DNA from: a virus
Reading direction: 5' to 3' (one strand)
Virus record (IMG/VR): IMGVR_UViG_3300047388_000163
Coordinates: 3,132-67,131 of that record
DNA length: 64,000 bases
In this document: positions 4,325 to 39,042 of the stretch, in pieces
How positions within the stretch are numbered: the stretch's first letter is position 1
How the letters are laid out: every line of letters begins with the position of its first letter
Translations under genes and position numbers: made by a program
The notes under the pieces: generated by a model
What the model saw: the letters and a program-made list of their open reading frames with translations, nothing else
Databases searched by the model: none
What the model was told of the DNA's origin: nothing

Positions 4325-5515
4325 ATGGGCCACCCTTACGCAGAGCACCGGCAAACGAAAAAAGAACACTCAAGGGTGAGCCACATCACCAAGGGCTACA
4401 AGTCAGGCGGTGCTGTACATGGCGCAAAAGCCATCGGTAAGAAAGCCTTGGCGCTCCACCGTGAAGAACACGCCGAACTGCACGCTGAGGGCGGCAAATC
4501 CAAGCATCGTATGGACCGTCCGAAACGAGCCAAGGGTGGCAAGATCCACCGGGATTCCGGTGGAGATGTCAGCCCGGTCAAGATGACGCCTGATTCTCTG
4601 CTGGCGGAAGCTCAGCGCCGTCATGATCAAGCTGTTCAGCAAGGGCGATCGTCTACCTTGACAGGCCAATTATACAAGTTGCAAGGCGAGAAGCCTTCTC
4701 GGGCCAAGGGCGGCAAGGTCAAGGGCAAGCACGACGCCAAGACGATTATCAATGTGGTATCTGGCGGTCATCCTGCAGGCGGCGCTATCCCCGCTGGCCC
4801 GCCAATGGCTCCCCCAGCCCCGCCGATGGGCATTGTGCCGGCAACTATGGCACCGCCTCCGATGGCCGCGAAGCCGCCCATGATGCCTCCTGGCGCTGGC
4901 GCACCGCCTTCAATGCCGATGAGGGAGAGAGGTGGCAAAATTCACCGGGCTTCCGGCGGCAAGATGCCGTCCGCTGAGGATATCGTTGCTTCCAACAAAA
5001 GAATGGTTCCTTCTGGTGGTATGTCCCCAGAAGAGGCAATGAGGAGAATTGAGGAAGCCACCCAAAAGCCCATGCAAAAAGCCCGCGGCGGCAAGGTCAC
5101 CAAGGGAACGAAGGTTTTCGAAGAAGGCCAGCGCAATGGGACGCCTGTCCAGCATATGCGTGGCAAGGGCGACCTTGAGCAGATGGGGCGCGGGAAACAA
5201 GTTACATTCGAATCGGGTGGCCGCGTTCGGTCGTTTTATGCCAAGGGCGGCTCTGTGAAGAACCATACCGATCCCGGCGTGTCCGATCGGTTGCACATGG
5301 GGGAGAGGTTCAAGGCATCGCCCATGGAAATACGCGGACAGGATTCGAACACGACGAATGATCCGACGATTGGTAAGCCAAATCGCGCTCGGGGTGGAAT
5401 GTGCCGGGCCAATGGCGGAATGGCTGACAAGGTGGCGGCCGCAACAAAATTGCCGGGCGGTTCCGGCGGCGGCGAGGCCCGTTTAGCCAAGGCGCATCGT
5501 GAGGCGCGGCGCTGA
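4325..5515 (+). CDS. basic low-complexity putative internal virion protein with 11 xAxGG-type motifs
   Basis: AGGAG RBS; YKSGG, RAKGG, RDSGG, RAKGG, RERGG, RASGG, KARGG, FESGG, YAKGG, RARGG, RANGG; Pro/Met-rich linker. Confidence 0.75.
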   Translation: MGHPYAEHRQTKKEHSRVSHITKGYKSGGAVHGAKAIGKKALALHREEHAELHAEGGKSKHRMDRPKRAKGGKIHRDSGGDVSPVKMTPDSLLAEAQRRHDQAVQQGRSSTLTGQLYKLQGEKPSRAKGGKVKGKHDAKTIINVVSGGHPAGGAIPAGPPMAPPAPPMGIVPATMAPPPMAAKPPMMPPGAGAPPSMPMRERGGKIHRASGGKMPSAEDIVASNKRMVPSGGMSPEEAMRRIEEATQKPMQKARGGKVTKGTKVFEEGQRNGTPVQHMRGKGDLEQMGRGKQVTFESGGRVRSFYAKGGSVKNHTDPGVSDRLHMGERFKASPMEIRGQDSNTTNDPTIGKPNRARGGMCRANGGMADKVAAATKLPGGSGGGEARLAKAHREARR

Positions 5516-5782: not shown

Positions 5783-6451
5783 ATGGTTCGAAGACTGATT
5801 AAGAAGCATGCCATACCTGCGCGCAAGTCTAAGCGTGGTGGCAAGGTAAATCCTCCAATTTTTCGCAAACATGTTCCGCAAGTTTTTGGCGAAGAAGAAG
5901 CCAAGATATTCGATATTCCCAAGCCTCCGATCGGTCTGGCTTACCAGTGGGTTCTCGCCGAGCATGTGAGGAAGTATCCGGGCTGGGTTCAGGTGCCGTT
6001 TGGACGCCATGTTCACGAGATGCCGCCAGACACCAATGATGATGGCGCGATCGTCTATCTGGGCAACATCTTGGTACAGCGAGAGCAGAGCTTGGTACAG
6101 GCCGAGCTAGTATTATCTCAACAGCACGCTCTCAAAAATCTGAAGGATCATCCAGCTTATCCGGGGAAAAAAGAGGGTGGTCCGTTTCGGATTCTATCCG
6201 AATCCTTCATGGTTTCTAGCCATTACGAGCGCGTCACTGGCCCATCAATCGTTGTGGATGTGACCATTCCGCTTCGAATGTCTACGCATTTGCAGGATAC
6301 AGCATCGGCGCTCGGTCTGACGGCGCAAGAATATCTGCAACGCAGCATTTCACTCTATGTCCGGGGTGAAACAGGCGGTTTGCTATTGCCCATTGATGGC
6401 GCAATGGAATTGCATCAAATTTACCTTAACGATCAGATGAGGAATAAATAA
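5783..6451 (+). CDS. head-module protein (YQW...GW.PVP..RH family, paralog 1)
   Basis: PPIGLAYQW, GWVQVPFGRH, GAIVYLGNIL. Confidence 0.65.
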   Translation: MVRRLIKKHAIPARKSKRGGKVNPPIFRKHVPQVFGEEEAKIFDIPKPPIGLAYQWVLAEHVRKYPGWVQVPFGRHVHEMPPDTNDDGAIVYLGNILVQREQSLVQAELVLSQQHALKNLKDHPAYPGKKEGGPFRILSESFMVSSHYERVTGPSIVVDVTIPLRMSTHLQDTASALGLTAQEYLQRSISLYVRGETGGLLLPIDGAMELHQIYLNDQMRNK

Positions 6452-6873: not shown

Positions 6874-7211
6874 TGGATGGCCGATCGGGATTTTTGAACG
6901 AACCACATGATGCGGTGCCTTCCGTTTTTATTCAATGGAAGGGTACCGATGTTTGCATGGATTTTTACTGCGATTGTGGAGCGCATGGGCATTTTGATGG
7001 CGATTTCGCCTATGCTGTGAAGTGCCAACATTGCAGCCAAGTTTGGGAAATGCCATGCCAAATATACCCTCGAAAAGCTAGCACTTCTGTGACTGATCCA
7101 TATTGGATTGAAAACGCCAAGCTTCTTGAAGCTGATGAAGATTTTTGCCATCAGATAGAGACTAACGGCGTGATTGAATTCGTTCCTCATCCCGTACCGA
7201 AGGCGGAATAG
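6873..7211 (+). CDS. hypothetical protein, Zn-ribbon-like
   Basis: IQWKGTDVCMDFYCDCG...CQHC; TGATG coupling. Confidence 0.65.
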   Translation: MDGRSGFLNEPHDAVPSVFIQWKGTDVCMDFYCDCGAHGHFDGDFAYAVKCQHCSQVWEMPCQIYPRKASTSVTDPYWIENAKLLEADEDFCHQIETNGVIEFVPHPVPKAE

Positions 7212-7213
7212 TC

Positions 7214-8194: not shown

Positions 8195-8427
8195 GCAAAT
8201 CCACTCATCTATTGCGCGGAACTATACAGCACCCAGGGGATAACAATCTCACTGAGAAATCTCTACTTGAGTTTATGGAAACGATCAGACAGCCGTATAA
8301 GCTAACAACGCCGCATCTTGTGGTCACTCAGGAAGGCATCGATAATGTAAAAGCTCTGTGCGCCGAAGATCCTGAATATCGCAAGCGAGTTTTAGCTGAA
8401 TTTCCCCAACTTGAAGGCATCATATGA
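8191..8427 (+). CDS. hypothetical protein
   Basis: ATGA-coupled ORF. Confidence 0.55.
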   Translation: MSKSTHLLRGTIQHPGDNNLTEKSLLEFMETIRQPYKLTTPHLVVTQEGIDNVKALCAEDPEYRKRVLAEFPQLEGII

Positions 8428-9131
8428 AACCCGTTCGCGAGATAGTATCCCGAGAGATCATTGATGACCTATGGGGCGCTGGCTATACGATCCTGCCGCG
8501 CGCTCGTCATCCAGATCCGTTCCATGTGCCAGCTGAGATGGTGCCGCAGAGCAGATCGTATCAGTGGTTCGATCTGAAGCATGACAAGTTTCATTATGAG
8601 CATAATGGATGGGCACCGGTTTCAGCGTCACGTCACGATGGTTATTTTATGCCAGCGGGTTTCATCGGAGATATCGAGGTTAACGGCCTCGGTCTGTTCG
8701 AAAAGCCAAAGTTCGAGGTTGATGCCGAACGAGCTGAGAATACCGCCAAAGCCAAAAAGATGGTTGAGGACTGGGCGAAGAATACTGGCGCGTTGTTTGA
8801 GGGCGAATTCAAGATCGGCAATGAGCGTACCGCGATCGGTGCCACCAAGACGATTGAGGATACAACCAAGATTCCGCGCGAGTTGACGCCATACATTGCG
8901 CAGATATTTGAGGAACGCGACGCACTCTATAACGATCTGGTTGGACGCTGGAATAGTGGTGGCGAACTCACAAATTGGCAGAATGCCATAAAGGTGGCTT
9001 ATGAGCTTCAATTGTCATTTACGCCAGATGCTCCTCTAGGCCCTACGTTGAATCGCTTCATTCTGCCAACTGCCATCGAAAACATCCGCAAACGCATTGC
9101 CGAGGAGGCTACCAGTGGCCAAGCATCTTAA
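8424..9131 (+). CDS. head-module protein (YQW...GW.PV..RH family, paralog 2)
   Basis: PQSRSYQW, NGWAPVSASRH, GDIEVNGLGLFEKP. Confidence 0.7.
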   Translation: MKPVREIVSREIIDDLWGAGYTILPRARHPDPFHVPAEMVPQSRSYQWFDLKHDKFHYEHNGWAPVSASRHDGYFMPAGFIGDIEVNGLGLFEKPKFEVDAERAENTAKAKKMVEDWAKNTGALFEGEFKIGNERTAIGATKTIEDTTKIPRELTPYIAQIFEERDALYNDLVGRWNSGGELTNWQNAIKVAYELQLSFTPDAPLGPTLNRFILPTAIENIRKRIAEEATSGQAS

Positions 9132-9843
9132 TATAGACGACGGAGACGATATTGCGCCGCAGCCTCTTTCGGCCCAGCCAAATCCGGCTCCGTATGGGTA
9201 TCTCAAAGACGGTAAAACCCCTCGTGGAAGGCCAGGTCGCCCAGCGAAAGAACCGCCCGTTACTGTGCCACCGCATGCCGCTCAGGCTGGACCTCCGCTG
9301 CGCCGGAACAACCCTCGCCCCGTGCCACGGGAGCAGCCCCGCGAGATGGCGCGTGAGCCGAGCCGAGGCAATGCCCGCGTGATGGGCCGCGATGGCGAGG
9401 AGCTTGTGCGTATGAGGCCGGAATCTGGCGGGGATCTTTACGAGAAGGTCAAAGCGCCTCCGGGATGGACTTTTCAGTGGAACAGTGTTGCTGCACTCGG
9501 CAAGGAAATGGACGAGATACAGTTGCAGATGTGGGCCAATGGCTGGCGTCCTGTACCTTCGTCACGGTTCCCCGGCATGTACACTGCGCCGGGGTATGAA
9601 GGTCAGATTGTCGTCAAAGGATTGCGCCTTGAGGAACGTCCTGAGACATTGACGCAGGAAGCCCAGTATGAGGATCACATGCGAGCTCAGAAGCAGACGC
9701 GTGATCAGACGGACGCTCTGCGGCTTACACAGGCCAAACTTCCCGGCGCTGAGGTTGGTGCTCGTGGTAACCGTGTAGCTGTAAAAGTTGACCGCAGCTT
9801 CACTGCTGACATTCCCCGGCCCCAGCACATGATTGAGGAGTAG
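9115..9843 (+). CDS. head-module protein (FQW...GW.PVP..RF family, paralog 3)
   Basis: GAGGAGG RBS before GTG; APPGWTFQW, NGWRPVPSSRF, GQIVVKGLRLEERP. Confidence 0.7.
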   Translation: MAKHLNIDDGDDIAPQPLSAQPNPAPYGYLKDGKTPRGRPGRPAKEPPVTVPPHAAQAGPPLRRNNPRPVPREQPREMAREPSRGNARVMGRDGEELVRMRPESGGDLYEKVKAPPGWTFQWNSVAALGKEMDEIQLQMWANGWRPVPSSRFPGMYTAPGYEGQIVVKGLRLEERPETLTQEAQYEDHMRAQKQTRDQTDALRLTQAKLPGAEVGARGNRVAVKVDRSFTADIPRPQHMIEE

Positions 9844-14407: not shown

Positions 14408-15322
14408 ATGCCCATTGCCTTGGCCAACATTCGATCTGAGCTTCTGCCGGGCCTCTTTGACGTAAGAGGCTCCTATGACATGATTCCGAGACAATGGGAC
14501 AAAGTATTCAAAACCCATAAGTCCGCGATGGCGGTTGAGCGCTCAACGCAGATGGCGTTCGTTGCGCTGCCGTTCCTGAAAGACGAAGGTGCCGCAACTC
14601 AATTCGACAACAATGCCGGTGAGCGCTTTACATGGGCATTCGTGCATATCGAGGTCGCTCTCGGCTACGCGATCACGAGAAAAGCCATCGACGACAATCT
14701 GTACAAGGCGCAGTTCAATCCGACCAATCTCAAGCTTCAGGAAGCGTTTGCGCAGTTCAAGGAAATCCAGGCCGCGAACGTCCTGAACCTCGGCAACGTC
14801 TACAACACGTCGATCATCGGTGACGGCGTTGCTCTGTTCTCCACGGCGCATCCGTTCGACAACGGCACATGGGCCAATACTTCGTCCACGCCGAAGTCGC
14901 TGAACGAAGCCGCCCTCCTTGCCGACATGACCAACGTGCGAACCCAGTTCGTCAATGAACGCGGCCTGCGCATCATGGCCCGAGCTCGCCGACTGATCGT
15001 ACCGCCGAATCTTGAGCAAGTCGCAATTCGTCTGATGAAGACCGAGCTGCGCCCCGGCACCGCAGACAACGATGTCAACGCTATCCTTACGCTATCTGGC
15101 GGCCTCCCCGAGGGTCACCTCGTGATGGACTTCTTCACCAGTAACTTCGCTTGGTTCCTCACGACCAACATCGAGGGACTGATCCATATGCTTCGCATTC
15201 CGTATGAGTCGGACATGTGGATCGATAATATCACGGATAATTTACTTGTGAAAGCGTATGAAAGGTATAGCTTCGGCTATAACGATCCGCGTTGCGCCTG
15301 GGCAGAGTTCGCTACTTCCTGA
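14408..15322 (+). CDS. major capsid protein
   Basis: 304 aa; ELLPGL, ALGYAITRKAIDDNLY, GDGVALFSTAHP, LIVPPNLE, GTADNDVNA, ERYSFGYNDPR; strongly C-ending codons. Confidence 0.9.
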   Translation: MPIALANIRSELLPGLFDVRGSYDMIPRQWDKVFKTHKSAMAVERSTQMAFVALPFLKDEGAATQFDNNAGERFTWAFVHIEVALGYAITRKAIDDNLYKAQFNPTNLKLQEAFAQFKEIQAANVLNLGNVYNTSIIGDGVALFSTAHPFDNGTWANTSSTPKSLNEAALLADMTNVRTQFVNERGLRIMARARRLIVPPNLEQVAIRLMKTELRPGTADNDVNAILTLSGGLPEGHLVMDFFTSNFAWFLTTNIEGLIHMLRIPYESDMWIDNITDNLLVKAYERYSFGYNDPRCAWAEFATS

Positions 15323-15392: not shown

Positions 15393-16535
15393 ATGAGCCG
15401 AGTGAACAAACTGACCCATGAACGCCTTGTTGAATTGCTGGACTTTGATCCAGCAACTGGCGTTTTCACGTGGCTAAAAACTACATCAAATCGAGTGAAG
15501 GTTGGGAGCCGTGCTGGCGTATTTCACAAGCCATCAGGCGGTCGGTATATCGCCATTGACGGCGAAAAATATATGGCGCACTTGCTGGCATGGTTTTACG
15601 TCCATAGCGTTTTTTCTTCGATGGATGTTCGACCGATTGACGGCAACTTCGATAATTGTGCCATCGTAAACCTGAAAGAGGTTCATCGCTCTGAGTTGCA
15701 ACATGCGCGCGGCATGAACCGTAACAATACCAGCGGGTTTCAGGGAGTTAGCGCGGCTCCGCATGACAAGTGGCAAGCCAAGATCACTTGGAAGACGAAG
15801 CAGGTTTCTCTTGGAATGAACTTCGCTAGGGCCGAAGATGCCGCAGATGTGGTCAAGGATGCATATTCTCGTCTGGGCACTGCTGGAAACGCTTCGGAAG
15901 AGGAATTAGTTTTCGAGGCGCTCAGACTTGAAAAACGCCAGCGCGCAGCTTGGGCTCATCTTCTTCGCAACGATGATCCATTCGTTTGGAAAACTTTTGA
16001 AGATTTTTGTCGCGATGTGACCGATGTTCTTGATCATCGCTACTCCATGGCTCCTATTGACGCCGCTAAGCCTATGTCCAAAGACAATTACAAATGGGCG
16101 TCTGAAGGACATGCCAAAACTGGAACGCCTGAAGGGTTTCTTCAATATCGGAGAGAAAATCAAAAGGCCAATTCGGATCACATGCGAAGCCGACGTTTCA
16201 AGAAGGAGTACGGCATCGATTTTGCGGAATACCAGAGAATGCTTCTTGAACAAAAAGGCGTTTGCGCGATATGCGATAGGCCTGAGACCAAGATTGAAAA
16301 CGGTTCTATTCGCATGCTCTCTGTGGACCATAATCATACGACTGGTGCAGTGCGTGGTCTGCTGTGCGGTAACTGCAATATGGCCATCGGCTATGCATGC
16401 GATGATGTGACAGTGCTTCAGAAGGCCATTGGATATTTGCGCAAGCATGCTGGCGTTGATACGGTGCTTCAGTTCGAACCAACTCGCCCCGATCGTGACT
16501 GGCTTCATGTCGCTACTCTTGGATTTGGAACCTAG
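15393..16535 (+). CDS. homing endonuclease: HNH-AP2 region plus endonuclease VII domain
   Basis: LTHERLVELLDFDPATG, AHLLAWFY, NNTSGFQGV; C-terminal YGI...QKGVCAIC...LSVDHNHTTGAVRGLLCGNCN. Confidence 0.85.
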   Translation: MSRVNKLTHERLVELLDFDPATGVFTWLKTTSNRVKVGSRAGVFHKPSGGRYIAIDGEKYMAHLLAWFYVHSVFSSMDVRPIDGNFDNCAIVNLKEVHRSELQHARGMNRNNTSGFQGVSAAPHDKWQAKITWKTKQVSLGMNFARAEDAADVVKDAYSRLGTAGNASEEELVFEALRLEKRQRAAWAHLLRNDDPFVWKTFEDFCRDVTDVLDHRYSMAPIDAAKPMSKDNYKWASEGHAKTGTPEGFLQYRRENQKANSDHMRSRRFKKEYGIDFAEYQRMLLEQKGVCAICDRPETKIENGSIRMLSVDHNHTTGAVRGLLCGNCNMAIGYACDDVTVLQKAIGYLRKHAGVDTVLQFEPTRPDRDWLHVATLGFGT

Positions 16536-16538
16536 CAT

Positions 16539-17804
16539 ATGACCGATACCAATTTCCGAGGCCCGGCCAACTCCATTGGCGCGATGCTTGACGGCACGGT
16601 GGCACCGACTGATGGGCCGAACTATGCGTATCAGGGGACGGTGTTTCCTGATCTTCGTGGCGGATTTTTCCAGAAGGATGGGACTGGCGCGGCGCGCATT
16701 CCTGGGTTCATTGATAACCCTACGATTGTGACTGTGGATAATATTCCGTCCGCTTCGACCACAGCCAACGTTGCCGCGCTTCAGACGGGTATTGTATCCG
16801 GTACGGTAATGACGTTGGTCACGGTCGCGCCTGGCAATACGACGGCTGGCGTGCCTTCATTGGCGACTGGCGTTCCCTTCATTCCGTTCGGTGGCACTGC
16901 CGTTCAGAACGTAACGGCGTTGGATTTCGGGTTCACGACGGGCACGACCACGGCCGCGAGCTCGGCTGTGGTTGTGGTGGATAACTCGCTGTTCACGGTT
17001 GGCCAATGGCTCTGCATCGGTGGTGCGGGTAACGCTGGCAAGACGCTGAGCCTGCTTACACAGGTTACTGTGGTCAGTGCGACAAATACGACTTCGATCA
17101 ACGTATTTCCGGTTCCGACTGGCTCGCTCTCGAATGCCCCGATCGGGAACGGGAATCAGTTCAACCAGTTCCTGCCGCCGGCAACGCAGTTTGGTCCGAG
17201 CGCGCCTGTGGCTACGGCTCAGTCCATTGCTTGGGCTTCTGGTTTATTCAAGCTGTTCAATCCGATTGCAGCGCTTGCGCGGAATTTGTCGATTACGACT
17301 GTCGCTGCGGCGGTGACTGGCACAATCACGGCTCGTGGATTTGATGTTCACTCTCAGGCGATGAGCGAAACATTCAATATCAATACGACGACAGCTGGGA
17401 CTTTCTACGGAAAGAAGGCGTTCAAATATGTCGCCTCCGTAACTCCGAACTATACTGACTCGACCGGGACCTATTCGGTTGGTGTTGGCGATACGTTCGG
17501 ATTCCCGATGAGGCAGGATAGGTATGAATTTTTGAACTATGCATGGAACGGCATCAACAATATCAATTCTACCGGATTCTTGGCTGCTGTTACGACCAAT
17601 CCGGCCACGGCAACGACAGGTGATGTTCGCGGCACGATCCAACTTTCTTTGGCTGGTGCTGGCAGTACGGCTATTCCAAGTTCGCAGACCAGCAATGGCA
17701 TTGCACGCCTCATGATTATCCAGACAATTCCTCTATTCAACTGCATCGCAGGAACGCCGAACAACACCGCGCCATTTTTTGGGGTTACTCAGTTCACGAA
17801 CTAA
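16539..17804 (+). CDS. Thr/Ser/Gly-rich virion structural protein (putative capsid decoration or fibre)
   Basis: 421 aa beta-rich; GKKAFKYV, VGVGDTFGFP, ATATTGDVRGT. Confidence 0.6.
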   Translation: MTDTNFRGPANSIGAMLDGTVAPTDGPNYAYQGTVFPDLRGGFFQKDGTGAARIPGFIDNPTIVTVDNIPSASTTANVAALQTGIVSGTVMTLVTVAPGNTTAGVPSLATGVPFIPFGGTAVQNVTALDFGFTTGTTTAASSAVVVVDNSLFTVGQWLCIGGAGNAGKTLSLLTQVTVVSATNTTSINVFPVPTGSLSNAPIGNGNQFNQFLPPATQFGPSAPVATAQSIAWASGLFKLFNPIAALARNLSITTVAAAVTGTITARGFDVHSQAMSETFNINTTTAGTFYGKKAFKYVASVTPNYTDSTGTYSVGVGDTFGFPMRQDRYEFLNYAWNGINNINSTGFLAAVTTNPATATTGDVRGTIQLSLAGAGSTAIPSSQTSNGIARLMIIQTIPLFNCIAGTPNNTAPFFGVTQFTN

Positions 17805-17857: not shown

Positions 17858-18238
17858 ATGAGCAGAGCTCGCCATAAAGAGCACCACAGGGCCTCCGGTG
17901 GTGGCATCGGCGGCCGCAAGGGCGAATGGGTCTCAGGTGACCCGGATGTCAAAAAGGAAGCCGAAGGCAAGGAGCCCTATGACGAGGGTGACGAGCGCAA
18001 ACGCGGCGGCAAGGTCAAGAAGAAAAAACATGAGATCCATGCAGAGGGCGAGAAGGCCCGTCATCGGATGGACCGACCGAAGCGGGCTCATGGTGGCCGT
18101 GTAGGCTCTGACAGCAATCCGTTCAGCTCAGCGAAGAATCCATCGAAGGCCGAAGAACCTGACGTGGAAGACCGTCGTGGTTACAAAACTAGTCGCATCA
18201 AGGATGAGCGCGACAACAGCAAGGGTAACCAGAATTGA
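17858..18238 (+). CDS. basic protein with three xxxGG motifs; shares a segment with 4325-5515
   Basis: RASGG, RKRGGKV, HAEGEKARHRMDRPKRAHGGRV. Confidence 0.7.
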   Translation: MSRARHKEHHRASGGGIGGRKGEWVSGDPDVKKEAEGKEPYDEGDERKRGGKVKKKKHEIHAEGEKARHRMDRPKRAHGGRVGSDSNPFSSAKNPSKAEEPDVEDRRGYKTSRIKDERDNSKGNQN

Positions 18239-28939: not shown

Positions 28940-29190
28940 TGGCTGACGAAGACCTCGGTGGAAGTGCAGCCTCGCAAGGGCTAAAGGATCTCAACACCAC
29001 TCAACAATCAGGTGTGCGATACCTTGGCCTGATTATCCAAGCGCTGCAAAAGGCATTCATTCAGTTCGGCGGCAAGACGACTTCGGCTACTTCTGGCGCA
29101 GCGAGTGCACTTCCTGCTACCCCTGCGGGCTATGTTGGCATAACCCTTCCTGACGGCACAATTGGGAAGGTGCCATTTTACAACAATTGA
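28939..29190 (+). CDS. small tail-module protein
   Basis: TAATG coupling; LPATPAGY...KVPFYN. Confidence 0.6.
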   Translation: MADEDLGGSAASQGLKDLNTTQQSGVRYLGLIIQALQKAFIQFGGKTTSATSGAASALPATPAGYVGITLPDGTIGKVPFYNN

Positions 29191-29197
29191 GCATCCC

Positions 29198-29707
29198 ATG
29201 CCCCTGATCAAATCAGCCTCTAAGGCCGCGATTGGTAAAAACATTGAGGAGATGCAGGCTTCAGGACATCCACATGATCAGGCTGTGGCCGCTGCGCTTG
29301 AGACTGCGCGCCGCGCCAAGCGGGCCAAGGGTGGAAAGGTGCATGTTGGGCCTGTTATCGGAGATACAGGTGGAAGGGCTGATAAGGTTGATGCTTCAGT
29401 GCCTGACGGAACCTACGTCATACCAAGTCAGGCTGTTAGCCATTTAGGTGAAAACAACACAATGGCTGGCATGAAAGTTCTACAGAAGATGTTTCCTCTC
29501 AGCGCACCCAAAAAAGCTAGAATGGCAAGCGGCGGCGTTCCGGTTGCAATAGCTGACGGTGAATTTTGCGTGGCCCCTTCCGATGTGAAAAGAATAGGAG
29601 GCGGTGATATAGACTATGGCCACAAGATTCTAGACGAATGGGTCATGCAACTCAAAGCGGATCACATCAAAACACTTCAGGGTCTAGAACCGCCAGCACG
29701 AGATTGA
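29198..29707 (+). CDS. xAxGG-motif protein with duplicated DG(E/T)(F/Y)V module
   Basis: MPLIKSASKAAIGKNI...QAVAAAL leader, RAKGG, GPVIGDTGGRADKV...DGTYVIP, MASGG, ADGEFCV. Confidence 0.7.
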   Translation: MPLIKSASKAAIGKNIEEMQASGHPHDQAVAAALETARRAKRAKGGKVHVGPVIGDTGGRADKVDASVPDGTYVIPSQAVSHLGENNTMAGMKVLQKMFPLSAPKKARMASGGVPVAIADGEFCVAPSDVKRIGGGDIDYGHKILDEWVMQLKADHIKTLQGLEPPARD

Positions 29708-29781: not shown

Positions 29782-30498
29782 ATGGCTGAAGAAGAACCTA
29801 CGCACGAAATCATTTCTCGTAAAGATGCAAAGGCAAAAGGTCTTAAACATTATTTTACGGGGAAACCTTGTAAAAATGGCCATATTGGACTTAGAAGAGT
29901 ATCCGAGACTGGATGTTCCACCTGTTCTTATCTAAACGTCAAGAAGTGGCGGAAAGAAAATAGAGAAAAATCCAGGGCGATCGATGCTTCTTGGAGAGCA
30001 AAAAACAAGGACAGAGTGAATGAGTAGGAGAGAGCACGTTATGCAAAAGATCCTGCTAAATATGTTGCAAAAACTAGGAGATCATATTGGAAGAAACCGG
30101 AAGAATATCGCGCTAAAGCAAATAAGTTCTATTATGAGAGCTACAAAAATCCAGAAGTGAGAAAAAAGGCCCAAGAGAGATCCCGTCAGTGGGCTTTAGA
30201 GAATCCTGAGCGGGCTAAAGTTAGCCGCCGAAACGCTAAAGTTAAGCGGAGAAATCTAGGAACTGAAGGCTTTCACACAGCGGATGACATTGCCGAAATT
30301 CTCAAGATGCAGCGCGGCAAGTGCGCTTACTGTCGGATCAAGATGGGCGACAAATATACAGTTGATCACATCATCCCTGTGGCTAAGGGCGGAACCAATG
30401 ATCGCCGTAATATCCAGTTAACTTGTATGCCGTGCAACAGAGAAAAATGGGCTAGAGACCCATTGTTCCATGCTCAAATGCTCGGTAGGCTCATATAA
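29782..30498 (+). pseudogene. HNH endonuclease interrupted by in-frame TAG
   Basis: YFTGKPCKNGH N-terminus and CAYC...DHIIPVAKGGTN..NIQLTCMPCN in one frame; TAG at 30025-30027. Confidence 0.8.
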
Positions 30499-31407: not shown

Positions 31408-34400
31408 ATGTGTGGGAAGGGAAGCAATACCACAACCAGTGCTAGCACAACCTCAGCCGCTCCTCAGGCAACCTCAGCCTATCAAGCCCTTCTTGATCGC
31501 GCTCAGGGCGTAGCAGCTACCCCTTACCAAGCCTACACAGGCGAACTAACCGCTCCGATCAATTCCCAGCAGCAGGCCGGTATATCGGGCATCAACGCGG
31601 CTTCTGGACAGGCTCAGCCAGCAATCAATCAGGCGCTTGGCTTGGCGGCGGGCGCTGCTAATCCGCTCACAGCCGCACAGATCCAGCAGTACCAGAACCC
31701 CTATACGCAGAACGTCATTGATGCGACGCAGGCGCAATTCAACAATCAGAATGCGCAACAGCAGCAGCAATTGACAGGGAACGCCATTTCCCAAGGCGCG
31801 CTGGGTGGCAATCGTGTTGGGGTGGCACAGGCCAACCTTGCGGGACAGGAATCGCTTGCTCAGGCTCCAGTTATCGCGGGGCTATACAGCAATTCATATC
31901 AGCAGGGATTGGCGGCGGCTGGGCAGCAATTCCAGCAGAATCCCCTGGCTGCGGCTGGATCGATCGCCAACTTCGGACTCGCGGGGCAAAATGCGGCTTT
32001 GACAGGCGCTGGAGCTCAGCTCGGGGCGGGCACTGTACAGCAGCAGACACAACAGCAGATCGATGCCGCGAATCAGGCGCAATACAATCAGCAGCAGGCC
32101 TATCCGTATCAGCAGACCCAATGGCTGGCTGGGCTTGATACCGGGGTGGGGCCTGGTTTGGGCTCCAGTTCAACCGGTCAGACGACCGCGCCTGCTCCGA
32201 ACCAGTTTTCCCAATATGCTGGGCTTGGGTTAGCGGCGGCTTCGTTCCTAGCCCGCGGTGGTCGGGTCAGCCTTGGAGATGTCCAGCATTTTGACGGCGG
32301 TGGTGTAGCCAAGTCACCTTGGGGCAATGCGCCGTCATGGATACCCCAGATCACCCTTGGGAATGCCGCACCTCATACCGGCAGCGCTCCGGGGGCGCCG
32401 AGCAATACGGCTCCGACGTTCGATTACAGCAAGATCATTGCGGCCAATAATAAGGATTCCAACGGGCTGTTGAGCGGCCCGTCATATGGCGGCGGTAACG
32501 TCTTCACCGATGCATATGGTGGTTCCAGCTCTAGTCCATTGGAAGGATTGAGCGCTGCGGATTATGGCGAGGGATTCGCCCGTGGAGGTGTGGCTGGATA
32601 CGCCGATGGCGGTGCCACTTTCAACGAACGTTTTTCTGGTAACCCTAATCCAAGTTCATGGGACTATTTCAAAGCAGGGGCCAAGGATTTCGCCTCGGAT
32701 GTTGGAAAGGTATTCAGTGGAGATACGAGCGGAACCACGTTCGATAATAGACGAGCCCTAATCAAGGGACGTAACGGCTACGCCGATGGTGGCGCACCCG
32801 ACGATCCATTTGGGGACCAAAACAGGGCAATTGCGTATGATATGCTGCGTAAGGGTCAAGGCATTCAAACTCCGGTTGCGGAAACGCCAAACCAAGGCGT
32901 TGCTGCGGCGCCGGTATGGAACCCGGATCAGCCGTATCGGATGCCGGACCAAGCCGCAGTGGACGACTGGCGCGCAGGCAACCCATTGCCGGGCTCTGGG
33001 GTGGCTCCTGCTGCGTCTAGCGATGATGACGAGCCTTTGCCGCCTGAGATCACGGGCAAGCCCAGCGGGGCTCCTGCTGGCGTTGGTGGGGCTGATAGTG
33101 CGGCCATGTCTTTTGCGCCGGGTGTTGGATCTGCGGCACCGACAACCAATCCGATGGGGGCGACTTGGCAGCCAACTAGCCAACAGGCCCCTGATAACGG
33201 CGGCGGTCTGGGATTGTTCAATATGTCGCACAATGCTCGTTCTGGATTGCTGGCCGCAGGGCTTGGCATGCTGGCGTCTCGATCGCCGAATCTAGGAAAT
33301 GCGATCGGCGAAGGTGGTCTAGCGGGGATGTCCGCCTATGGCGCTGGCGAGGAACGCGACCGGAAGGTGGCTGAGGAAGCCGCAAAGCTATCCCGCGAGG
33401 CTCAGCAGCATGCGGAGGAAATGAAATATAAATATGATACTCTTGGAGAAAATATCCGAAGCCACAAGGCCAATGAAGAAAAGGAATACAAACCATCTTG
33501 GAGCGTCATCAGTGAGGCTGTTGATCCAGATACTGGTTTGGCAAAAAAGACCTATGGATGGGTGGATCCGAACAAAAAGGTAATCACGGATTCGTCTGGG
33601 AAGCCGATCGCGGCCAGCACATCACCGACACCACCTTCTACTGCGCCGAAAGATGCCAATCCTGATGCGACAGGCGATGAATTTCTAAAGAGCGTGCCAC
33701 CGGCCAGGGCCGCAAGGGCAAAGATGATCGGCGATTATGAGGAAAGCCCAGCCGATCTGCCTACACGTGGTGGCGTGAGAGCGGCTGCGGTTGCTGATGC
33801 CAAACGGTACAACAAGGACTTCAACGAACAGAACTATGCGGCATCACAGCGCGCGTACACTAATTTCGTGGCGGGACCTGAGGCTAGAACGGTTCGCTCA
33901 TTGAATGTGGCCACAGATCACCTCGATACGCTAAGGCAGGCCGCAGCCGCCCTGAAGAATGGTCAAATTCCTGTACTGAATTCCATAGTGAATAAATATC
34001 GGGAAGCCACTGGTTCGCCGCTGACCACAGATTTCGATTCCATCAAGCAGGCGGTGAGCTCTGAAATAGCCAAGACCATCGTGGGCGGCCAAACTGCGCT
34101 TCAAGATCGTGATGAAATGTCCAACAGAGCGCGCAATGCAGATTCTTCAGAGCAGCTTTTTGGCATTTTCGATCAATTCACCAAACTGATGGGCGGCCAG
34201 ATGAAGGGCCTCCGTCAGCAATATGAGGCTGGGACCTATAGGAAGGATTTCGATCGGTATCTGTTGCCATCCACAAAAGCGGCAATTGACGCTGTTTCAA
34301 AGGATGTGCAGCCAACTTATGAGAAACCGAAGGCACCGGATGCAGCGGTTGCAAAGCTGAAAGCTAACCCTGAATTGGCTCCGGCATTCGATCAGAAATA

Positions 34401-34437
34401 CGGTGTAGGCGCATCACGTCAATATTTAGGCCAGTAA
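31408..34437 (+). CDS. DNA ejection / internal virion protein with xAxGG motifs
   Basis: MCGKGS.TTT N-terminus, Q/A-rich pilot-protein region (YQNPYTQNV, GALGGNR); LARGG, FDGGG, FARGG, YADGG twice. Confidence 0.75.
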   Translation: MCGKGSNTTTSASTTSAAPQATSAYQALLDRAQGVAATPYQAYTGELTAPINSQQQAGISGINAASGQAQPAINQALGLAAGAANPLTAAQIQQYQNPYTQNVIDATQAQFNNQNAQQQQQLTGNAISQGALGGNRVGVAQANLAGQESLAQAPVIAGLYSNSYQQGLAAAGQQFQQNPLAAAGSIANFGLAGQNAALTGAGAQLGAGTVQQQTQQQIDAANQAQYNQQQAYPYQQTQWLAGLDTGVGPGLGSSSTGQTTAPAPNQFSQYAGLGLAAASFLARGGRVSLGDVQHFDGGGVAKSPWGNAPSWIPQITLGNAAPHTGSAPGAPSNTAPTFDYSKIIAANNKDSNGLLSGPSYGGGNVFTDAYGGSSSSPLEGLSAADYGEGFARGGVAGYADGGATFNERFSGNPNPSSWDYFKAGAKDFASDVGKVFSGDTSGTTFDNRRALIKGRNGYADGGAPDDPFGDQNRAIAYDMLRKGQGIQTPVAETPNQGVAAAPVWNPDQPYRMPDQAAVDDWRAGNPLPGSGVAPAASSDDDEPLPPEITGKPSGAPAGVGGADSAAMSFAPGVGSAAPTTNPMGATWQPTSQQAPDNGGGLGLFNMSHNARSGLLAAGLGMLASRSPNLGNAIGEGGLAGMSAYGAGEERDRKVAEEAAKLSREAQQHAEEMKYKYDTLGENIRSHKANEEKEYKPSWSVISEAVDPDTGLAKKTYGWVDPNKKVITDSSGKPIAASTSPTPPSTAPKDANPDATGDEFLKSVPPARAARAKMIGDYEESPADLPTRGGVRAAAVADAKRYNKDFNEQNYAASQRAYTNFVAGPEARTVRSLNVATDHLDTLRQAAAALKNGQIPVLNSIVNKYREATGSPLTTDFDSIKQAVSSEIAKTIVGGQTALQDRDEMSNRARNADSSEQLFGIFDQFTKLMGGQMKGLRQQYEAGTYRKDFDRYLLPSTKAAIDAVSKDVQPTYEKPKAPDAAVAKLKANPELAPAFDQKYGVGASRQYLGQ

Positions 34438-37400
34438 TGAAGCATCATCCACAGAGCACGGCAGCAGAACGGTTCAAGCGGTTGATCGCTTACGATCCTA
34501 TGTCTGGTCTCCATCGTGGAAAACGTGCTGATGGTGGCCGCGTAAACATGGGAGAAGTGAATACCAATCCGACCGAAGGCCAGAAGCTAGCAGGTAACTA
34601 TCGCAAGGGTCATACTAGAATCCATGGTTTGGATATTTCAATCGAAAATCCAAGAGGTTCAATTCGCACTGCAAAAGATGGAAGTTGGAAAGTGCGGATG
34701 CCCTGTGCATATGGGTACATCAGAGGAACAGAAGGCTCAGACGGTGATCATGTTGACTGCTACCTTGGGCCTCATTTGAAATCACCGCATGTGTTTGTAA
34801 TTGACCAGAATGATTTGCGCACTGGCAAGCACGATGAACACAAGTGCATGATTGGATTTGGCAGCAAGACACAAGCCAAGGAGGCCTATCATCAGGCATT
34901 TTCGGATGGCAAAGGCAAAGATAGGATTGGGCATATTGAGACGCTAAGCGTTCCGATGTTCAAGCTTTGGCTCTCTCATGGCAACACCAAGAAGCCCATC
35001 AAGCGCGCTTCTGGCGGTAGTGTTCGCAAACCGGGATCAACCTATAATACTGAGCTAAGCCCATTGGATGAAATGGCTTACCGCCAATGGGTAAAGGACA
35101 ACAATGTCCCGACAAATCCTGATGCTACAGCGGTGCAGGATTATGACATGCGTGGATTTTACCAAGGTCTGCAGCAACAGAACCCGCGCGCTCAATCGGC
35201 AATAGATCCAAACGATAGTCAGATGCATTACCCTGATTATTGGAAAACACCGATTCATCAGACATTTTCCAATGAAAGCCAGTGGGCACCGGCTAACGCA
35301 CCGTCATGGACCGATGACGATAAGTTGGTTCAGCCCAACGGAAGGGTGGTGTTTGATGACAGAAATAAGCCATCTGATGCCGCGCAATTACTAACAGTTC
35401 CAAGGGCCGGCGGCGGCAATGTTCGAAAGCCTCGGTTTGCTGATTTCCGCCGATCGGAAAACATTGAGGATCGGCGCAATGATAATTCTCCTGTCGAAAA
35501 TAAACCTTGGGGCTTTGATGCAGAACCATGGGCAAGTGAACAAATTGCCGCTACTAGCGATTATAACCCATTGTCGGAAGGATTAGGAATCGGAGACATA
35601 TATTACACTCGCAATCAAAGAGCTGATGGCGGTCGGGTCCATATGGCAGATGGTGGCACTCCGAATCCGTTCGATGATTTCGATAACCAGCATGCCAGCA
35701 CTCATGCGTCTAATCCATTTGATGATTTCGACACGCCGGCGAAAACAGCACCATCCGGCGGAATTGCCTCATATCTGCCAAAGGCAATAACGGATGTCCC
35801 GCATGAAATGTATCAGGCTGGTGCCGAGCAGATTGGGAATATCAAAAACGCGTGGAATGAACGGCATGCAAGACACGAGGCTCAGGCAATCAAGGATAGC
35901 GGTCCTAATGCATCGTTCTTTGATCCGGGAGCAATGGTTAATTCCCTGAAGGATGTGGCCGACACCGGAAAGATGGTTCTAGGCGCAGCTTCAATCATTC
36001 CTTCAACCTTGATTGCAGGTCCTGCAAGATCATTGATAGGCCATCCCTTGGCCGATGCTGAGCATTTGGTTGGATCAATCATCAATCCCCAACAGGCTGC
36101 TAAGGATAACCCTGAGCAGATGTATCAGACTGCGAAGGGTGACGTAGATACGGCGCTATCTGCCGTCCGACCGCGTGGCCCTATGGTCAAAGCTCCGTCT
36201 GTGCCTGGCACTATAGCGGGGCCGCATGAGATCCCGGCCGATGCACCGTCATATCAGCATCCGAGCCAAATTCCCGCGCCTCCCCCGCCGGAATCCGTAG
36301 CCAATACTCAGGCAGCAGATGAGTTCGGCATCAAGCTGTCGCGAGGGCAGGCAACTGGGGATCTGGATACGATCCGCTATGAAGACATGGCTGCGCGCGG
36401 TGCCTATGGAAAGGATCTCCAAGACAAAGCGGTGCCATTCTTTGAGAAGCAATTCCAAGACACCCAAGCTGCTGGTCATGCAGTAGGCCAGCAGACGGCC
36501 AGAACGGCACCTGTAGCTGATACGCCTTCTGACGCAGCCTCCGCTGTTGGATCTGAGGTAGCCGATCGTGCGGCCCGCGCTAGGGCACTACAGGCCCAGA
36601 CAGAACAACAGGCGGCGACCGAAGCGGAGTCACAACGCGGCATTCTGTCAGATCAGAACCGAGCTCTGAGCGATGCCCTGCGAGGCAGTTCACTCCCGAT
36701 TGCCAATCCAACCGAGGCGGGGGAAGTAGTTGGCGCTAATGTGCGCCAAGCTGCGGCAGCAAATCGCGCGGAGTTTCAGGCTCGATACCGAGAATTTGGG
36801 GAGTTGCCCGGCGAATTTCGTGTGGATGCTGTGCGCGGTTTGGGAACGCGTGTCCGTAATGAAATTGGCGGGGGCGATAATCCGATTATCATTGATGACC
36901 AGCTTACGCCGGCAGCATCGCGGGCTATCCAGGCGTTGGATGAAATGTCTGTGCCGCGCATTCAGAATCGTGCCAGTCCCAATGCGGCACCAAATCCTGA
37001 TGAAATTGCGGGCGTAAATCTCCGCGGCATTGATCAGATGCGCAAGAAACTGGTGGCCTATTATCAGGCAGCCAGGACCAATCCGACCGATGCACGAGCC
37101 GTTCAGGGAATCATTCATGGTTTCGATGGCCAGATTGAGCGCGCCATTACGGAAGGGCTGTTCTCTGGCGATCCAAGGGCGCTGGAGGCTCTGCAGGAAG
37201 CACGGGCGTCCTATGCCAGGTATCGGCGGACATTCAGCCCTCAAGGCGCTGGCGACGACGTAGGCACCGCCATGCGCCGAATTGTGGAGCGCAATGCCAC
37301 GCCGGAAGAAACCGCCAACATGATCATTGGATCTGGGAAAATAGGTAACTCAGGTTTGCCGGTTCGGATAGCCGATCGGCTTGAACAGGTACTAGGGGCT

Positions 37401-38438
37401 GATTCGGATAGTTGGAGCGCGCTGAGACAAGCCATGTGGCAGAAGGCGTCACAGGTTCGTAATTCCGCAGGGGTTGTGGATCCGGCCAAGTCTGCGCAGA
37501 GCATCAACGATTTTACTGGAACGACACTCGCGCAGCGCATGTTTACCGCTCAGGAACGCGCGGCCATGCGGGCTCATGCCCAAGGCATCCAGGATCTGGA
37601 CAGGAACATTGAGCAGCTACCGGCCACCCGGACCGCGGAGCGCACACGACAAGCCTATCAGGATACGTTTGGCGGGGCTGATCTTGGCGGCACGCCGAAG
37701 GCTGTATTTCAGAAAATGGTGCAGGGAACTGCCACACCAGAAGAAATAGCCAACGGTGTTTTCAAGGTAATCGGTGCCGGAAATCCTGGCCATGTTACAC
37801 GGGCTTTGCAGGCTATTGAACGAATTGTTGGGCCGAATAGCGACGCCATGGGCGCGATTCGCCAAGGGGTGTGGCAAAAGCTCACTCAGGCAGCCGCTGG
37901 CAAGGATCAGCCAGGAGCTCAAAAGGCCATGCAGGCAATCAATGAATTCCTAAATGGATCTGGAAAGACGATTGCCGAACAACTTTATTCGCCCTCTGAA
38001 TTGGCTCTTATGGATCGATACCAGAAAGCCTTGAAGCTTACTATCATCCCGAAATATGCTAGAACAAATTCCGATACGGCTCCGGCTTTGTTGGCTGCGG
38101 TGCGTAAATACGCAGGAATGGTCGGATCTGCTCTTGGGGTTGTCGGGCTTGGAGGAGCAGAGGGCGGATTGTCGGGGTATGCGGTTTCCAAGCTGTTGGA
38201 CAAAGGCGGGGAGAAGTTTCTAGCGGCTCGTCAATCCAAGAAGTTGGAAAATTCGCTCAACAATGTTGTACCGCCGCCGGTTAAGCCCGTCACTCCACCG
38301 TCACCGAAATCAGCGCGTATTCTTCCGTTGAGTGTTCAGCCGGGATATAGAGGTCCTGGACTTGGTAGTCTGCAAGGCCCCGTGCCAGCAGATGCCGATG
38401 AGAAAAAGAAACGCCCCGGTGGGATAGGGCACGCATAA
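34437..38438 (+). CDS. large ejection protein with inorganic pyrophosphatase-like domain
   Basis: 1333 aa; PTEGQKLAGNYRKGH, ISIENPRGS, YGYIRGTEGSDGDHVD, VIDQ, DEHKCMIGF match the polyvalent-protein InPase domain; NPFDDFD twice; long helical C-terminus. Confidence 0.8.
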   Translation: MKHHPQSTAAERFKRLIAYDPMSGLHRGKRADGGRVNMGEVNTNPTEGQKLAGNYRKGHTRIHGLDISIENPRGSIRTAKDGSWKVRMPCAYGYIRGTEGSDGDHVDCYLGPHLKSPHVFVIDQNDLRTGKHDEHKCMIGFGSKTQAKEAYHQAFSDGKGKDRIGHIETLSVPMFKLWLSHGNTKKPIKRASGGSVRKPGSTYNTELSPLDEMAYRQWVKDNNVPTNPDATAVQDYDMRGFYQGLQQQNPRAQSAIDPNDSQMHYPDYWKTPIHQTFSNESQWAPANAPSWTDDDKLVQPNGRVVFDDRNKPSDAAQLLTVPRAGGGNVRKPRFADFRRSENIEDRRNDNSPVENKPWGFDAEPWASEQIAATSDYNPLSEGLGIGDIYYTRNQRADGGRVHMADGGTPNPFDDFDNQHASTHASNPFDDFDTPAKTAPSGGIASYLPKAITDVPHEMYQAGAEQIGNIKNAWNERHARHEAQAIKDSGPNASFFDPGAMVNSLKDVADTGKMVLGAASIIPSTLIAGPARSLIGHPLADAEHLVGSIINPQQAAKDNPEQMYQTAKGDVDTALSAVRPRGPMVKAPSVPGTIAGPHEIPADAPSYQHPSQIPAPPPPESVANTQAADEFGIKLSRGQATGDLDTIRYEDMAARGAYGKDLQDKAVPFFEKQFQDTQAAGHAVGQQTARTAPVADTPSDAASAVGSEVADRAARARALQAQTEQQAATEAESQRGILSDQNRALSDALRGSSLPIANPTEAGEVVGANVRQAAAANRAEFQARYREFGELPGEFRVDAVRGLGTRVRNEIGGGDNPIIIDDQLTPAASRAIQALDEMSVPRIQNRASPNAAPNPDEIAGVNLRGIDQMRKKLVAYYQAARTNPTDARAVQGIIHGFDGQIERAITEGLFSGDPRALEALQEARASYARYRRTFSPQGAGDDVGTAMRRIVERNATPEETANMIIGSGKIGNSGLPVRIADRLEQVLGADSDSWSALRQAMWQKASQVRNSAGVVDPAKSAQSINDFTGTTLAQRMFTAQERAAMRAHAQGIQDLDRNIEQLPATRTAERTRQAYQDTFGGADLGGTPKAVFQKMVQGTATPEEIANGVFKVIGAGNPGHVTRALQAIERIVGPNSDAMGAIRQGVWQKLTQAAAGKDQPGAQKAMQAINEFLNGSGKTIAEQLYSPSELALMDRYQKALKLTIIPKYARTNSDTAPALLAAVRKYAGMVGSALGVVGLGGAEGGLSGYAVSKLLDKGGEKFLAARQSKKLENSLNNVVPPPVKPVTPPSPKSARILPLSVQPGYRGPGLGSLQGPVPADADEKKKRPGGIGHA

Positions 38439-38463: not shown

Positions 38464-39042
38464 ATGATGCCAACCAGCCATGATCGAAGCTTCATTCCGT
38501 ATCCTTTGGGTTCAGATCCGCAGTTTGAAAAATGCTTGCCTGACACTTTGAAGCAGGAGGGCGGTTATTCGAATGATGCCCATGATCCTGGTGGAATGAC
38601 CATGGAGGGCATCATCCAGCGCGAGTACGACAGCAAGCGCAAACAATGGGGTCTCCCGACACAATGGGTGAAAAAGATCAGCGCTGACGAAATGAGGACG
38701 ATCTACTACACGGATTATTGGCTGCCATACTGCCCTTCCTTGGATGCCGGATTGGATCTGGAGTTTTTCGATCTCTGCGTCAATGGTGGACAACACCGGG
38801 CTATCGTGACCTTACAGAGAGCGCTGGGCATCTCTGATGATGGAATGTGGGGGCAGCAGACCTCTGCCGCTGTCGGTAAATTGGCAGCCTCTGGAGACAT
38901 TCTATCAGCTATTGAAAGACTTAAGGTTGAGCGAGAGAAGTTTTATCGTTCGCTGACGACATTCCGGTATTTCGGCAAAGATTGGATCCGGCGCAGCGAG
39001 GAAATTGCTGAGCAAGGCACTGAAATGGAAAAAACGGCATGA
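38464..39042 (+). CDS. endolysin, glycosyl hydrolase family 108
   Basis: EGGYSNDAHDPGGMTMEGI, IYYTDYW, FDLCVNGG, LQRALGISDDG.WG, FGKDWIRR. Confidence 0.9.
   Translation: MMPTSHDRSFIPYPLGSDPQFEKCLPDTLKQEGGYSNDAHDPGGMTMEGIIQREYDSKRKQWGLPTQWVKKISADEMRTIYYTDYWLPYCPSLDAGLDLEFFDLCVNGGQHRAIVTLQRALGISDDGMWGQQTSAAVGKLAASGDILSAIERLKVEREKFYRSLTTFRYFGKDWIRRSEEIAEQGTEMEKTA

Follow-up and report, generated by a model that had tools for sequence, protein, structure and literature searches.

A recurrent Gly-Gly joint at the module borders of a predicted ejection-type virion protein in an uncultured soil phage

In polymorphic toxins, VENN in CdiA and PxxxxDPxGL in Rhs demarcate a single C-terminal toxin, partly via DNA homology, and in adenoviruses and asfarviruses a known cysteine protease serves the Gly-Gly-X sites of several precursors inside the core, some of them very basic and DNA-associated. 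Among phages, the sites of T4 (capsid-targeting sequence, gp21) and of phiKZ/SPN3US have Glu as their last residue and require a prohead protease that has been identified, the leader of P22 gp7 is removed by the host OpdA, and T7 gp16 is another ejection protein with an enzymatic add-on. Here we describe, in an uncultured soil phage of ~67 kb whose portal is SU10-like and whose capsid protein is Mu gpT-like, a 1333-amino acid (aa) open reading frame (ORF; 34437..38438, + strand) predicted to encode the largest internal virion protein, which is of the ejection type and carries cassettes. The ORF lies in a stretch of 64,000 nucleotides, the window, which spans bases 3132-67131 of one 67,131-bp virus record (IMGVR_UViG_3300047388_000163). 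Its modules are separated by a short Gly-Gly motif, the joint, making it a polyvalent or polymorphic virion protein with a sharp, apparently undescribed joint code. The domains of phage polyvalent proteins have been proposed, in the parts of the account used here, to enter with the DNA and to be processed into units (Iyer, Burroughs, Anand, de Souza and Aravind 2017; PMC5512222). No description of the joint was found in the literature on inorganic pyrophosphatase (InPase) and polyvalent proteins, Gly-Gly ejection proteins, prohead protease motifs and the motif itself; the InPase alignments and architectures in the supplements of Iyer et al. 2017 may include this one.

Joints coincide with domain and recombination boundaries

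The ATG of the 1333-aa ORF overlaps the TAA stop of the upstream 1009-aa ORF (TAATG), and all of the features that follow are on the + strand. The protein opens with a basic 29-aa leader (34437..34523, pI 10.4), kept in many relatives as MK..(ERF/QF).(R/K)LIAYDP..GL and missing from others, and continues with joint 1, RADGGRV (R30-A-D-G-G; 34524..34544), the InPase domain PF18823 (aa 48-179; 34578..34973), joint 2, RASGGSV (R190-A-S-G-G; 35004..35024), an unnamed ~110-aa domain (YNTELSP...DYDMRGF...HYPDYWKTP.H.TFSNESQW; 35025..35402), joint 3, RAGGGNV (R323-A-G-G-G; 35403..35423), and an acidic 65-aa module (RKPRFADFRRSENIEDRR...; 35424..35618). A double joint, RADGGRVH-MADGGTP (R395, M403; 35619..35663, with MADGG at 35643), marks the start of a conserved ~930-aa core (35643..38438), near the beginning of which two NPFDDFD repeats (35664..35731; copies at 35664-35683 and 35712-35731) form a 20-nt DNA repeat of 90% identity. 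Every element of this order, from the leader through the InPase, compact domain and module to MADGG and NPFDDFD, is found where the original prediction had placed it, and the third module is real and lies between joints, although it measures 65 aa and not the 70 aa given for it. The observation was thus confirmed in that prediction, whereas its interpretation holds only in part. The core itself contains two moderately hydrophobic, Gly-rich stretches, at aa ~1215-1250 (38100-38190) and aa 507-535 (35955-36040), with Kyte-Doolittle 19-residue maxima of 1.35 and 1.27, respectively, which could be membrane-active segments.

A search with the core (aa 400-1333) among 8000 candidates returned 130 proteins at E<=1e-3, and the best 120 (the query and 119 relatives) were examined. 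These proteins are 819-2074 aa long and share a common core in which the listed relatives are 44-97% identical to the query, while the part that precedes the core varies from none to about 780 aa. PF18823 is present in 51/120 of the listed proteins. Some members consist of leader, joint, MADGG and core and nothing else, and many begin directly with the InPase; the cassettes of others include ART-PolyVal, DUF7178, LPD23 accompanied by an HExxH region, a DGNHR region resembling ParB and a cell-wall hydrolase (Hydrolase_2), together with small Cys-rich modules and large unnamed blocks. In distant members cassettes including the InPase are found on the C-terminus, again behind joints. Relatives with different cassettes between the motifs, or with none, as had been anticipated, are therefore seen among the 120 examined. 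Clustering of 92 inter-joint segments (>=40 aa), 56 of which are InPase, gave 25 clusters corresponding to about 20 true cassette types among the 120 relatives, most of them without a name. A second variable element lies at the start of the core, where a short acidic-aromatic repeat in two copies differs between relatives, taking the forms NPFDDFD, PAFDPSKPF, MSDADMGI, VTDPxxLxQLN and DDISWDAP. No PDB relative was found for the core, nor for the upstream 1009-aa protein.

The joint is a stretch of seven residues, [RK]-A-x-G-G-x-V or, more narrowly, [RK]-A-x-G-G-[RS]-V, with basic residues before it. In a six-frame scan of the window [RK]A.GG.V occurred 8 times, always in one of four long + strand ORFs and 4 times in the 1333-aa ORF, and five long + strand ORFs hold all 8 strict and 14/20 loose matches. 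With the strict pattern for the whole family set as [RKFY][AKR]xGGx[VIA], 97 joints were counted in the 35,208 aa before the core, whereas 200 shuffles gave 3.5 on average and never more than 9; a further 22 lie in the remaining 89,744 aa, all past residue 790, in C-terminal extensions. The joint logo shows basic residues at -8 to -5 followed by R, A, [E/D/S/A], G, G, R and V, and when position +2 was left free it was V or I in 93/126 copies.

The placement of the joints follows the borders of the modules. A strict joint lies <=30 aa downstream of 38/47 InPase domains; among the 9 without a close joint, 7 are the last module, 12-57 aa from the C-terminus of the protein, and the remaining two are those of P0046, which has a variant joint, and P0105. 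A test that makes no use of the motif took 50 internal points at which BLAST matches between the variable regions of different members stop, and these homology breakpoints lay a median of 8 aa from a joint, compared with 53.5 aa for random positions, with 34/50 within 15 aa of a joint compared with 4/50 random positions. Domains do not span the motifs: domain matches and homology breakpoints alike respect the joints. At the DNA level, contig L004, the core of which is 92% identical, is without window ~34539-35410; its homology runs through the leader to CGT GCT GAY GGT GGC and resumes at 35411 after GGC GGC GGC, so that the extra ~870-nt block in the window contains the InPase, joint 2, the second domain and joint 3 and has Gly-Gly codons on both sides. 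Leaderless, InPase-first forms start with MNLA.HI, the M of which falls, when aligned, on the +2 V of the leader joint, and they begin one or two residues past GG. These data show a modular grammar that is coincident with domain and recombination boundaries.

A border of this kind might need no recognition at all, if joints were flexible Gly-Gly hinges combined with a recombination scar and the cassettes had spread via GGN-GGN microhomology, carrying the flanking residues along. The L004 indel, bounded exactly by Gly-Gly codons, and a 12-nt repeat, GCTGATGGTGGC, present in three copies, would fit such an origin; however, this repeat is the only DNA repeat at joints within the gene, and 12 nt at 83-92% identity constitute weak homology. 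Furthermore, R, A, G, G and V are kept while the codons diverge fully, which puts the amino acids under selection, and the motif is kept in low-complexity proteins with freely varying spacers, so that we regard the hinge and scar as quite improbable. The 73 distinct 21-nt joint copies use all six Arg codons and all four Ala codons, and the joint as a DNA repeat or recombination site was ruled out, given the single 12-nt repeat and the divergent codons. Since the codons differ among copies while the amino acids stay, the joint is selected at the protein level.

The original prediction had further taken MADGG as the ancestral start of the protein. This is doubtful because MADGG forms the latter part of a conserved double joint, RAxGGRVH-[MFYLV]A[DE]GGxP, that is also found inside the neighbouring 1009-aa protein (FARGGVAGYADGG), because its M is replaced by F, Y, L, V or K in other members, and because cassette-free distant relatives are without MADGG altogether. 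A start at [ML]ADGG is found in only 2/71 aligned proteins, both of them gene-caller starts. These two relatives would agree with a functional MADGG start at which the core is also made alone (M403, 35643), bare and cassette-bearing forms co-existing, but the bases before 35643 (GGCGGTCGGGTCCAT) contain no clear ribosome-binding site, and both the variable M and the occurrence of the same double joint inside the upstream protein make an internal start most improbable. The Gly-Gly codons before M403 were also ruled out as a GGAGG ribosome-binding site, the codons being GGT/GGC.

The InPase-like domain noticed in the sequence is an InPase by Pfam: PF18823 matches aa 48-179 with an E-value of 5.3e-45 and 153 bits, far above the gathering cut-off of 26.8, over profile positions 2-134/135. 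In an alignment of 36 sequences, >=90% retain E70, D102, D107, D123, D133 and E134, and the DGDxVD motif (D102, D104, D107) aligns to DGDPVD of E. coli PPase chains; the domain has the conserved acidic metal-binding residues of type I pyrophosphatases. Matches to ten PHROG families and to a single PDB chain (9b41_L, a portal whose C-terminal part is an InPase) are confined to the InPase part. InPase domains had been said to occur in phage and plasmid polyvalent proteins; the parts of Iyer et al. 2017 used here list the domain as phage-type only.

The ~110-aa domain was searched alone (aa 197-322) against 1.84 billion representatives, and 884 cluster representatives matched at E<=1e-3, of which 494 did so at E<=1e-10. 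The matches always lie within the segment (roughly residues 2-118 of 126), in proteins of 97 to 4492 aa in which the domain stands alone or at any position, and with 884 representatives and every match confined in this way the predicted compact domain proves to be an independent domain. A strict joint was found within 90 aa upstream in 2/143 and within 130 aa downstream in 2/143 cases; as the domain is widespread and joints rarely stand beside its matches, the joints belong to this phage clade. The 65-aa module lies directly behind the leader in contigs L002 and L004 and is also found in P0004, P0052 and P0133. It may resemble the N-terminus of YpfJ-type peptidases, for which a Pfam scan was negative, and the 1333-aa protein as a whole matched no Pfam peptidase family at E<=1.

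Joints in neighbouring structural proteins and their genome setting

The joint is present in at least six ORFs of the structural block. Directly after the portal gene, a 396-aa basic (pI 10.6), low-complexity protein (4325..5515, + strand) contains five loose-pattern joints and further GG copies; it has a match in 5/5 related records searched, and its four readable homologous ORFs retain the joints, with spacers that vary and have acquired inserts. A 222-aa ORF (5783..6451, +) has an N-terminal basic leader ending in KRGGKV, and a 126-aa basic protein (pI 9.8; 17858..18238, +) has three joints, RASGGGI, RKRGGKV and RAHGGRV. The 181-aa protein (29162..29707, +), with RAKGGKV at 29321, belongs to a family that is a second cassette carrier, reaching 634 aa in contig L006, where an LPD23/metallopeptidase-like cassette lies between joints, and 1050 aa in contig L005, where the member carries a block found on the 1333-aa family in P0101. 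Copies of [FRK]KxGGx[VI] are also present in the distant phage MW202675.1, which has the same gene order.

Immediately upstream of the 1333-aa ORF, the 1009-aa ejection-type protein (31408..34437, +) matches phrog_4287, 'DNA ejection protein', with its N-terminal 286 aa, after which come the joints LARGGRV (32248), HFDGGGV, the double joint already described (about 32581-32613) and YADGG (32779). phrog_4287 is a 392-position family that elsewhere consists of stand-alone ~392-aa proteins, and in the L002 homologue (6390-9581) the match extends to profile position 383. A Peptidase_S74 module, a self-cleaving chaperone, is found in the homologues of L002 (aa 282-330) and MW202675.1 (9188-12745; aa 277-327), followed at once by KASGG or KADGG; S74 is thus present in 2/4 scanned homologues, with no match in L005 and L006, and at the same spot the window protein has no S74 and instead has LARGGRV...HFDGGGV. 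The presence of S74 at this junction in relatives indicates that joints also mark a junction that takes a module of a self-cleaving family. The MW202675.1 homologue additionally has an SLT lytic transglycosylase domain (aa 601-694) that the window protein is without. Two candidates were rejected: in the giant protein of Pseudomonas phage 8P the joint is not used as a separator, and a relationship of P22 gp7 to the 1009-aa protein was not supported (best BLASTP E 0.097; gp7 is in phrog_598, not phrog_4287).

The spread of the joint over at least six head- and ejection-block ORFs, with the strict pattern absent elsewhere in the window, bears on a further explanation, in which the joint stays uncut and acts as a docking or packaging peptide, one per cassette, that holds internal proteins to the capsid shell, scaffold, portal or DNA in the manner of encapsulin cargo-loading peptides or of the repeated motifs of disordered cargo-loading domains. 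Multiple copies in two very basic proteins (pI 10.6 and 9.8), conserved residues flanking GG on both sides, tandem double joints, and a scan of the structural-block ORFs with Pfam and PHROGs that found no protease would all be consistent with docking. In the 1333-aa family, however, the joint stands at nearly every module boundary and not anywhere in the chain, a cassette that is already joined covalently does not need its own packaging signal, and the cassette-free relatives have no joint yet are presumably packaged; docking, the main rival of processing, is considered unlikely. Distant relatives without cassettes are also without joints, and a function at the junction, such as the processing that we favour, accordingly fits better than a packaging signal.

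A large terminase gene lies immediately upstream of the window, which itself contains the SU10-like portal (1813-4056; matches to PF23899 and phrog_1216), the 304-aa Mu gpT-like capsid protein (14408-15322) and tail-fibre-like genes. The gene order at the ejection end is 181-aa protein, putative acetyltransferase (a name taken from the annotation of MW202675.1), 1009-aa protein, 1333-aa protein and GH108 endolysin (38464-39042), downstream of the 1333-aa ORF. An identical order is found in MW202675.1, where the annotation gives the second large protein as 'internal virion protein D'. The capsid lineage has at least 8000 database clusters at E<=1e-5, the best 120 of which are 86-93% identical and 295-306 aa long, a conservatism that contrasts with the hypervariable ends of the 1333-aa family.

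Several further genes were noted in these blocks. Between the 181-aa protein and the putative acetyltransferase the window has two small ORFs (29782-30498), the second an HNH endonuclease (PF01844, E 1.6e-12), at a position where the insert is absent from related contigs L002 and L004-L006, and in L003 and L004 an HNH_3/AP2-like ORF instead separates the acetyltransferase from the 1009-aa homologue; because the HNH ORFs differ in place between the window and related contigs, homing endonucleases appear to move about within the ejection block. The capsid gene is followed by a 380-aa HNH/endonuclease VII gene (15393-16535; PF02945, E 3.7e-22), which stands in front of the next ORF for a structural protein (16539-17804), and a GroES-like co-chaperonin (6451-6873; PF00166 Cpn10, E 5e-9; phrog_3188) lies in the head gene block, at the same place as in MW202675.1. 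ORFs 5783-6451, 8424-9131 and 9097-9843, which have no family match in Pfam or PHROGs, share a C-terminal ~60-aa region (YQW...GW.PVP..RH/F.G...G.I...GL), and ORF 9097-9843 additionally has an AT-hook-like PRGRPGRP stretch.

No close relatives were found among cultured phages, either by megablast or by blastn of the 181-aa gene. A tblastn search of the whole 1333-aa protein against 50,697 phage records matched the InPase part only (472 records), and the neighbouring proteins matched 3 records each. The only relative in the species-genome collection is L048, a 2.5-kb contig from a metagenome-assembled genome labelled uncultured Terracidiphilus sp.; taken with the soil metagenome runs, it gives a hint of an acidobacterial host that is too weak for one to be named. 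Reads from two soil runs, one of them probably the source and the other with four identical 151-base pieces, contained no joints or indels and were uninformative on populations.

What the carrier and its joints may do

The 1333-aa protein is very probably a modular carrier. Gene order and the cassette repertoire of phage polyvalent proteins suggest that it is a cargo carrier of the ejection apparatus, since it occupies an ejection-block position in which the upstream ORF matches phrog_4287, the order is that of MW202675.1 and the endolysin lies downstream. Its ~930-aa core would carry a string of independently folding, exchangeable cargo, in this case the leader, the InPase, the ~110-aa domain and the 65-aa module, and the joint would be a clade-wide code shared by N- and C-terminal cassettes, the second carrier family, the two basic head-block proteins and the fusion points of the neighbouring ejection protein. 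Proteins bearing the joint would be packed in the head and exit with the DNA, and the joint would then be the recognition site for cutting of the precursor, either by a host protease or by a phage protease that its sequence does not reveal. The cassettes would thereby be released as separate early effectors and the basic proteins reduced to small peptides, and the InPase may then act in the cytoplasm on pyrophosphate or on a nucleotide-like signal. Taken whole, as a carrier with cargo plus cleavage at the joints, this statement is put forward tentatively.

Its second element, the joint as a processing site, is possible and is the reading favoured here, because a joint is found at nearly every junction and is absent from the cassette-free relatives, and because the leaderless forms start just past GG, S74 is substituted at a junction and the basic proteins have multiple sites. 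A precedent may be seen in P22, in which a host protease takes 20 N-terminal residues off the ejection protein gp7 (P22 record; Wu et al. 2016). The mature end of gp7 starts with KGGKGG, so that trimming of a podovirus ejection protein by a host protease has been described before. Within the family, some cassettes are HExxH metallopeptidase-like, and these are present only in some relatives.

Several points weigh against processing. The scan of the structural-block ORFs by Pfam or PHROGs found no protease, the Atlas look-alikes of the 222-aa ORF considered in that hunt scored 0.83 or less, and the short 304-aa capsid protein near a separate 326-aa scaffold-like protein suggests a protease-less assembly type. 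Residues are conserved on both sides of GG and double joints lie 8 residues apart, both of which are odd for a simple cleavage site, and a cut right after GG would give an Arg N-terminus in 46/126 copies, a residue that destabilises proteins according to the bacterial N-end rule. The joint of the 181-aa family continues into a conserved GGKVHVGP... that is possibly folded. The core compared with P22 gp16 gave an hhalign probability of 0.14 and an E-value of 0.42, and shows no significant similarity to a known ejection protein.

More far-reaching, and in our view doubtful, is the proposal that [RK]AxGG[RS]V is the cleavage code of an unrecognised polyprotein-processing system, in which one host or cryptic phage protease would act on at least six precursors at ~25 sites and release injected effectors, namely the InPase, ADP-ribosyltransferase, ParB-like and peptidase cassettes, while the two basic proteins would be chopped into DNA-associated peptides. 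If true, this would be a bacterial-virus counterpart of the Gly-Gly-X core processing of adenoviruses and asfarviruses.

Proteins that accompany phage DNA into the cell are the first tools against host defences and are hard to recognise, and the grammar of carrier, joint, cassette and joint marks such proteins in a statistically sharp way. Should the joint prove to be a processing or docking code, it would offer a rule for mining metagenomes for new early effectors and a natural insertion point through which foreign proteins could be loaded into phage heads, and the handling of fused ejection proteins by protease-less podoviruses becomes testable. The lineage is abundant, the capsid protein alone having the large number of clusters given above.

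Comparison with known systems

The joint resembles the sites of P22 gp7, T4 and phiKZ head processing in that there is a short N-terminal leader and a short repeated site common to many head-internal proteins. In gp7, however, the site lies before KGGKGG and not after RAxGG, and unlike in T4 and phiKZ the ORFs scanned with Pfam and PHROGs yielded no prohead protease; the phi24B preprint, in the part used here, concerns other processing. As in the core processing of adenoviruses and asfarviruses, GG sites are found in head-internal proteins, including very basic ones, a resemblance by analogy only, and unlike in those viruses no such protease gene was found here.

In the P22 gp16 family (PF26808), as for the 1333-aa protein, the third ejection gene is large and is closely followed by lysis or late genes, and relatives of both carry cell-wall hydrolase add-ons (P0110 of the 1333-aa family, P0333 of the gp16 family). 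One Atlas row with a score of 0.90, a weak lead, points to a cluster with PF26808 in 63% of its members. Assignment of the core to the gp16 type was rejected, as there was no Pfam match and the hhalign values were those given above.

The portal-InPase of PB1-like and other phages (PDB 9b41 chain L, 'gp19 Portal'; phrog_4660) has an InPase of the same subfamily, placed inside the head, which the InPase described here matches with an E-value of 3.7e-35 at aa 637-762 of the 765-aa chain. Unlike here, the carrier in that system is the portal (or a minor head protein) and not an ejection-type protein, and no GG joint was found in the portal-InPase ORF of Pantoea phage PA1. Like the demarcation motifs of polymorphic toxins, the joint is a short conserved motif at the border of a constant carrier and swappable modules; in contrast to these, there are several joints per protein, at either end and with divergent codons, and no evident toxin or immunity cargo.

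The closest likeness in content is to phage polyvalent proteins, in which several unrelated effector-type domains are likewise joined in one virion-associated polypeptide, here the InPase and two modules. InPase, ART-PolyVal and LPD23, all present in the 1333-aa family, are signature domains of polyvalent proteins in the parts of PMC5512222 used here. The same text ascribes processing to an in-cis MPTase domain, whereas the 1333-aa protein has none, and in the text searched it describes no conserved inter-domain joint ('linker' and 'glycine' 0 times). Unlike the domains of polyvalent proteins, the cassettes described here hang on a constant ~930-aa carrier core.

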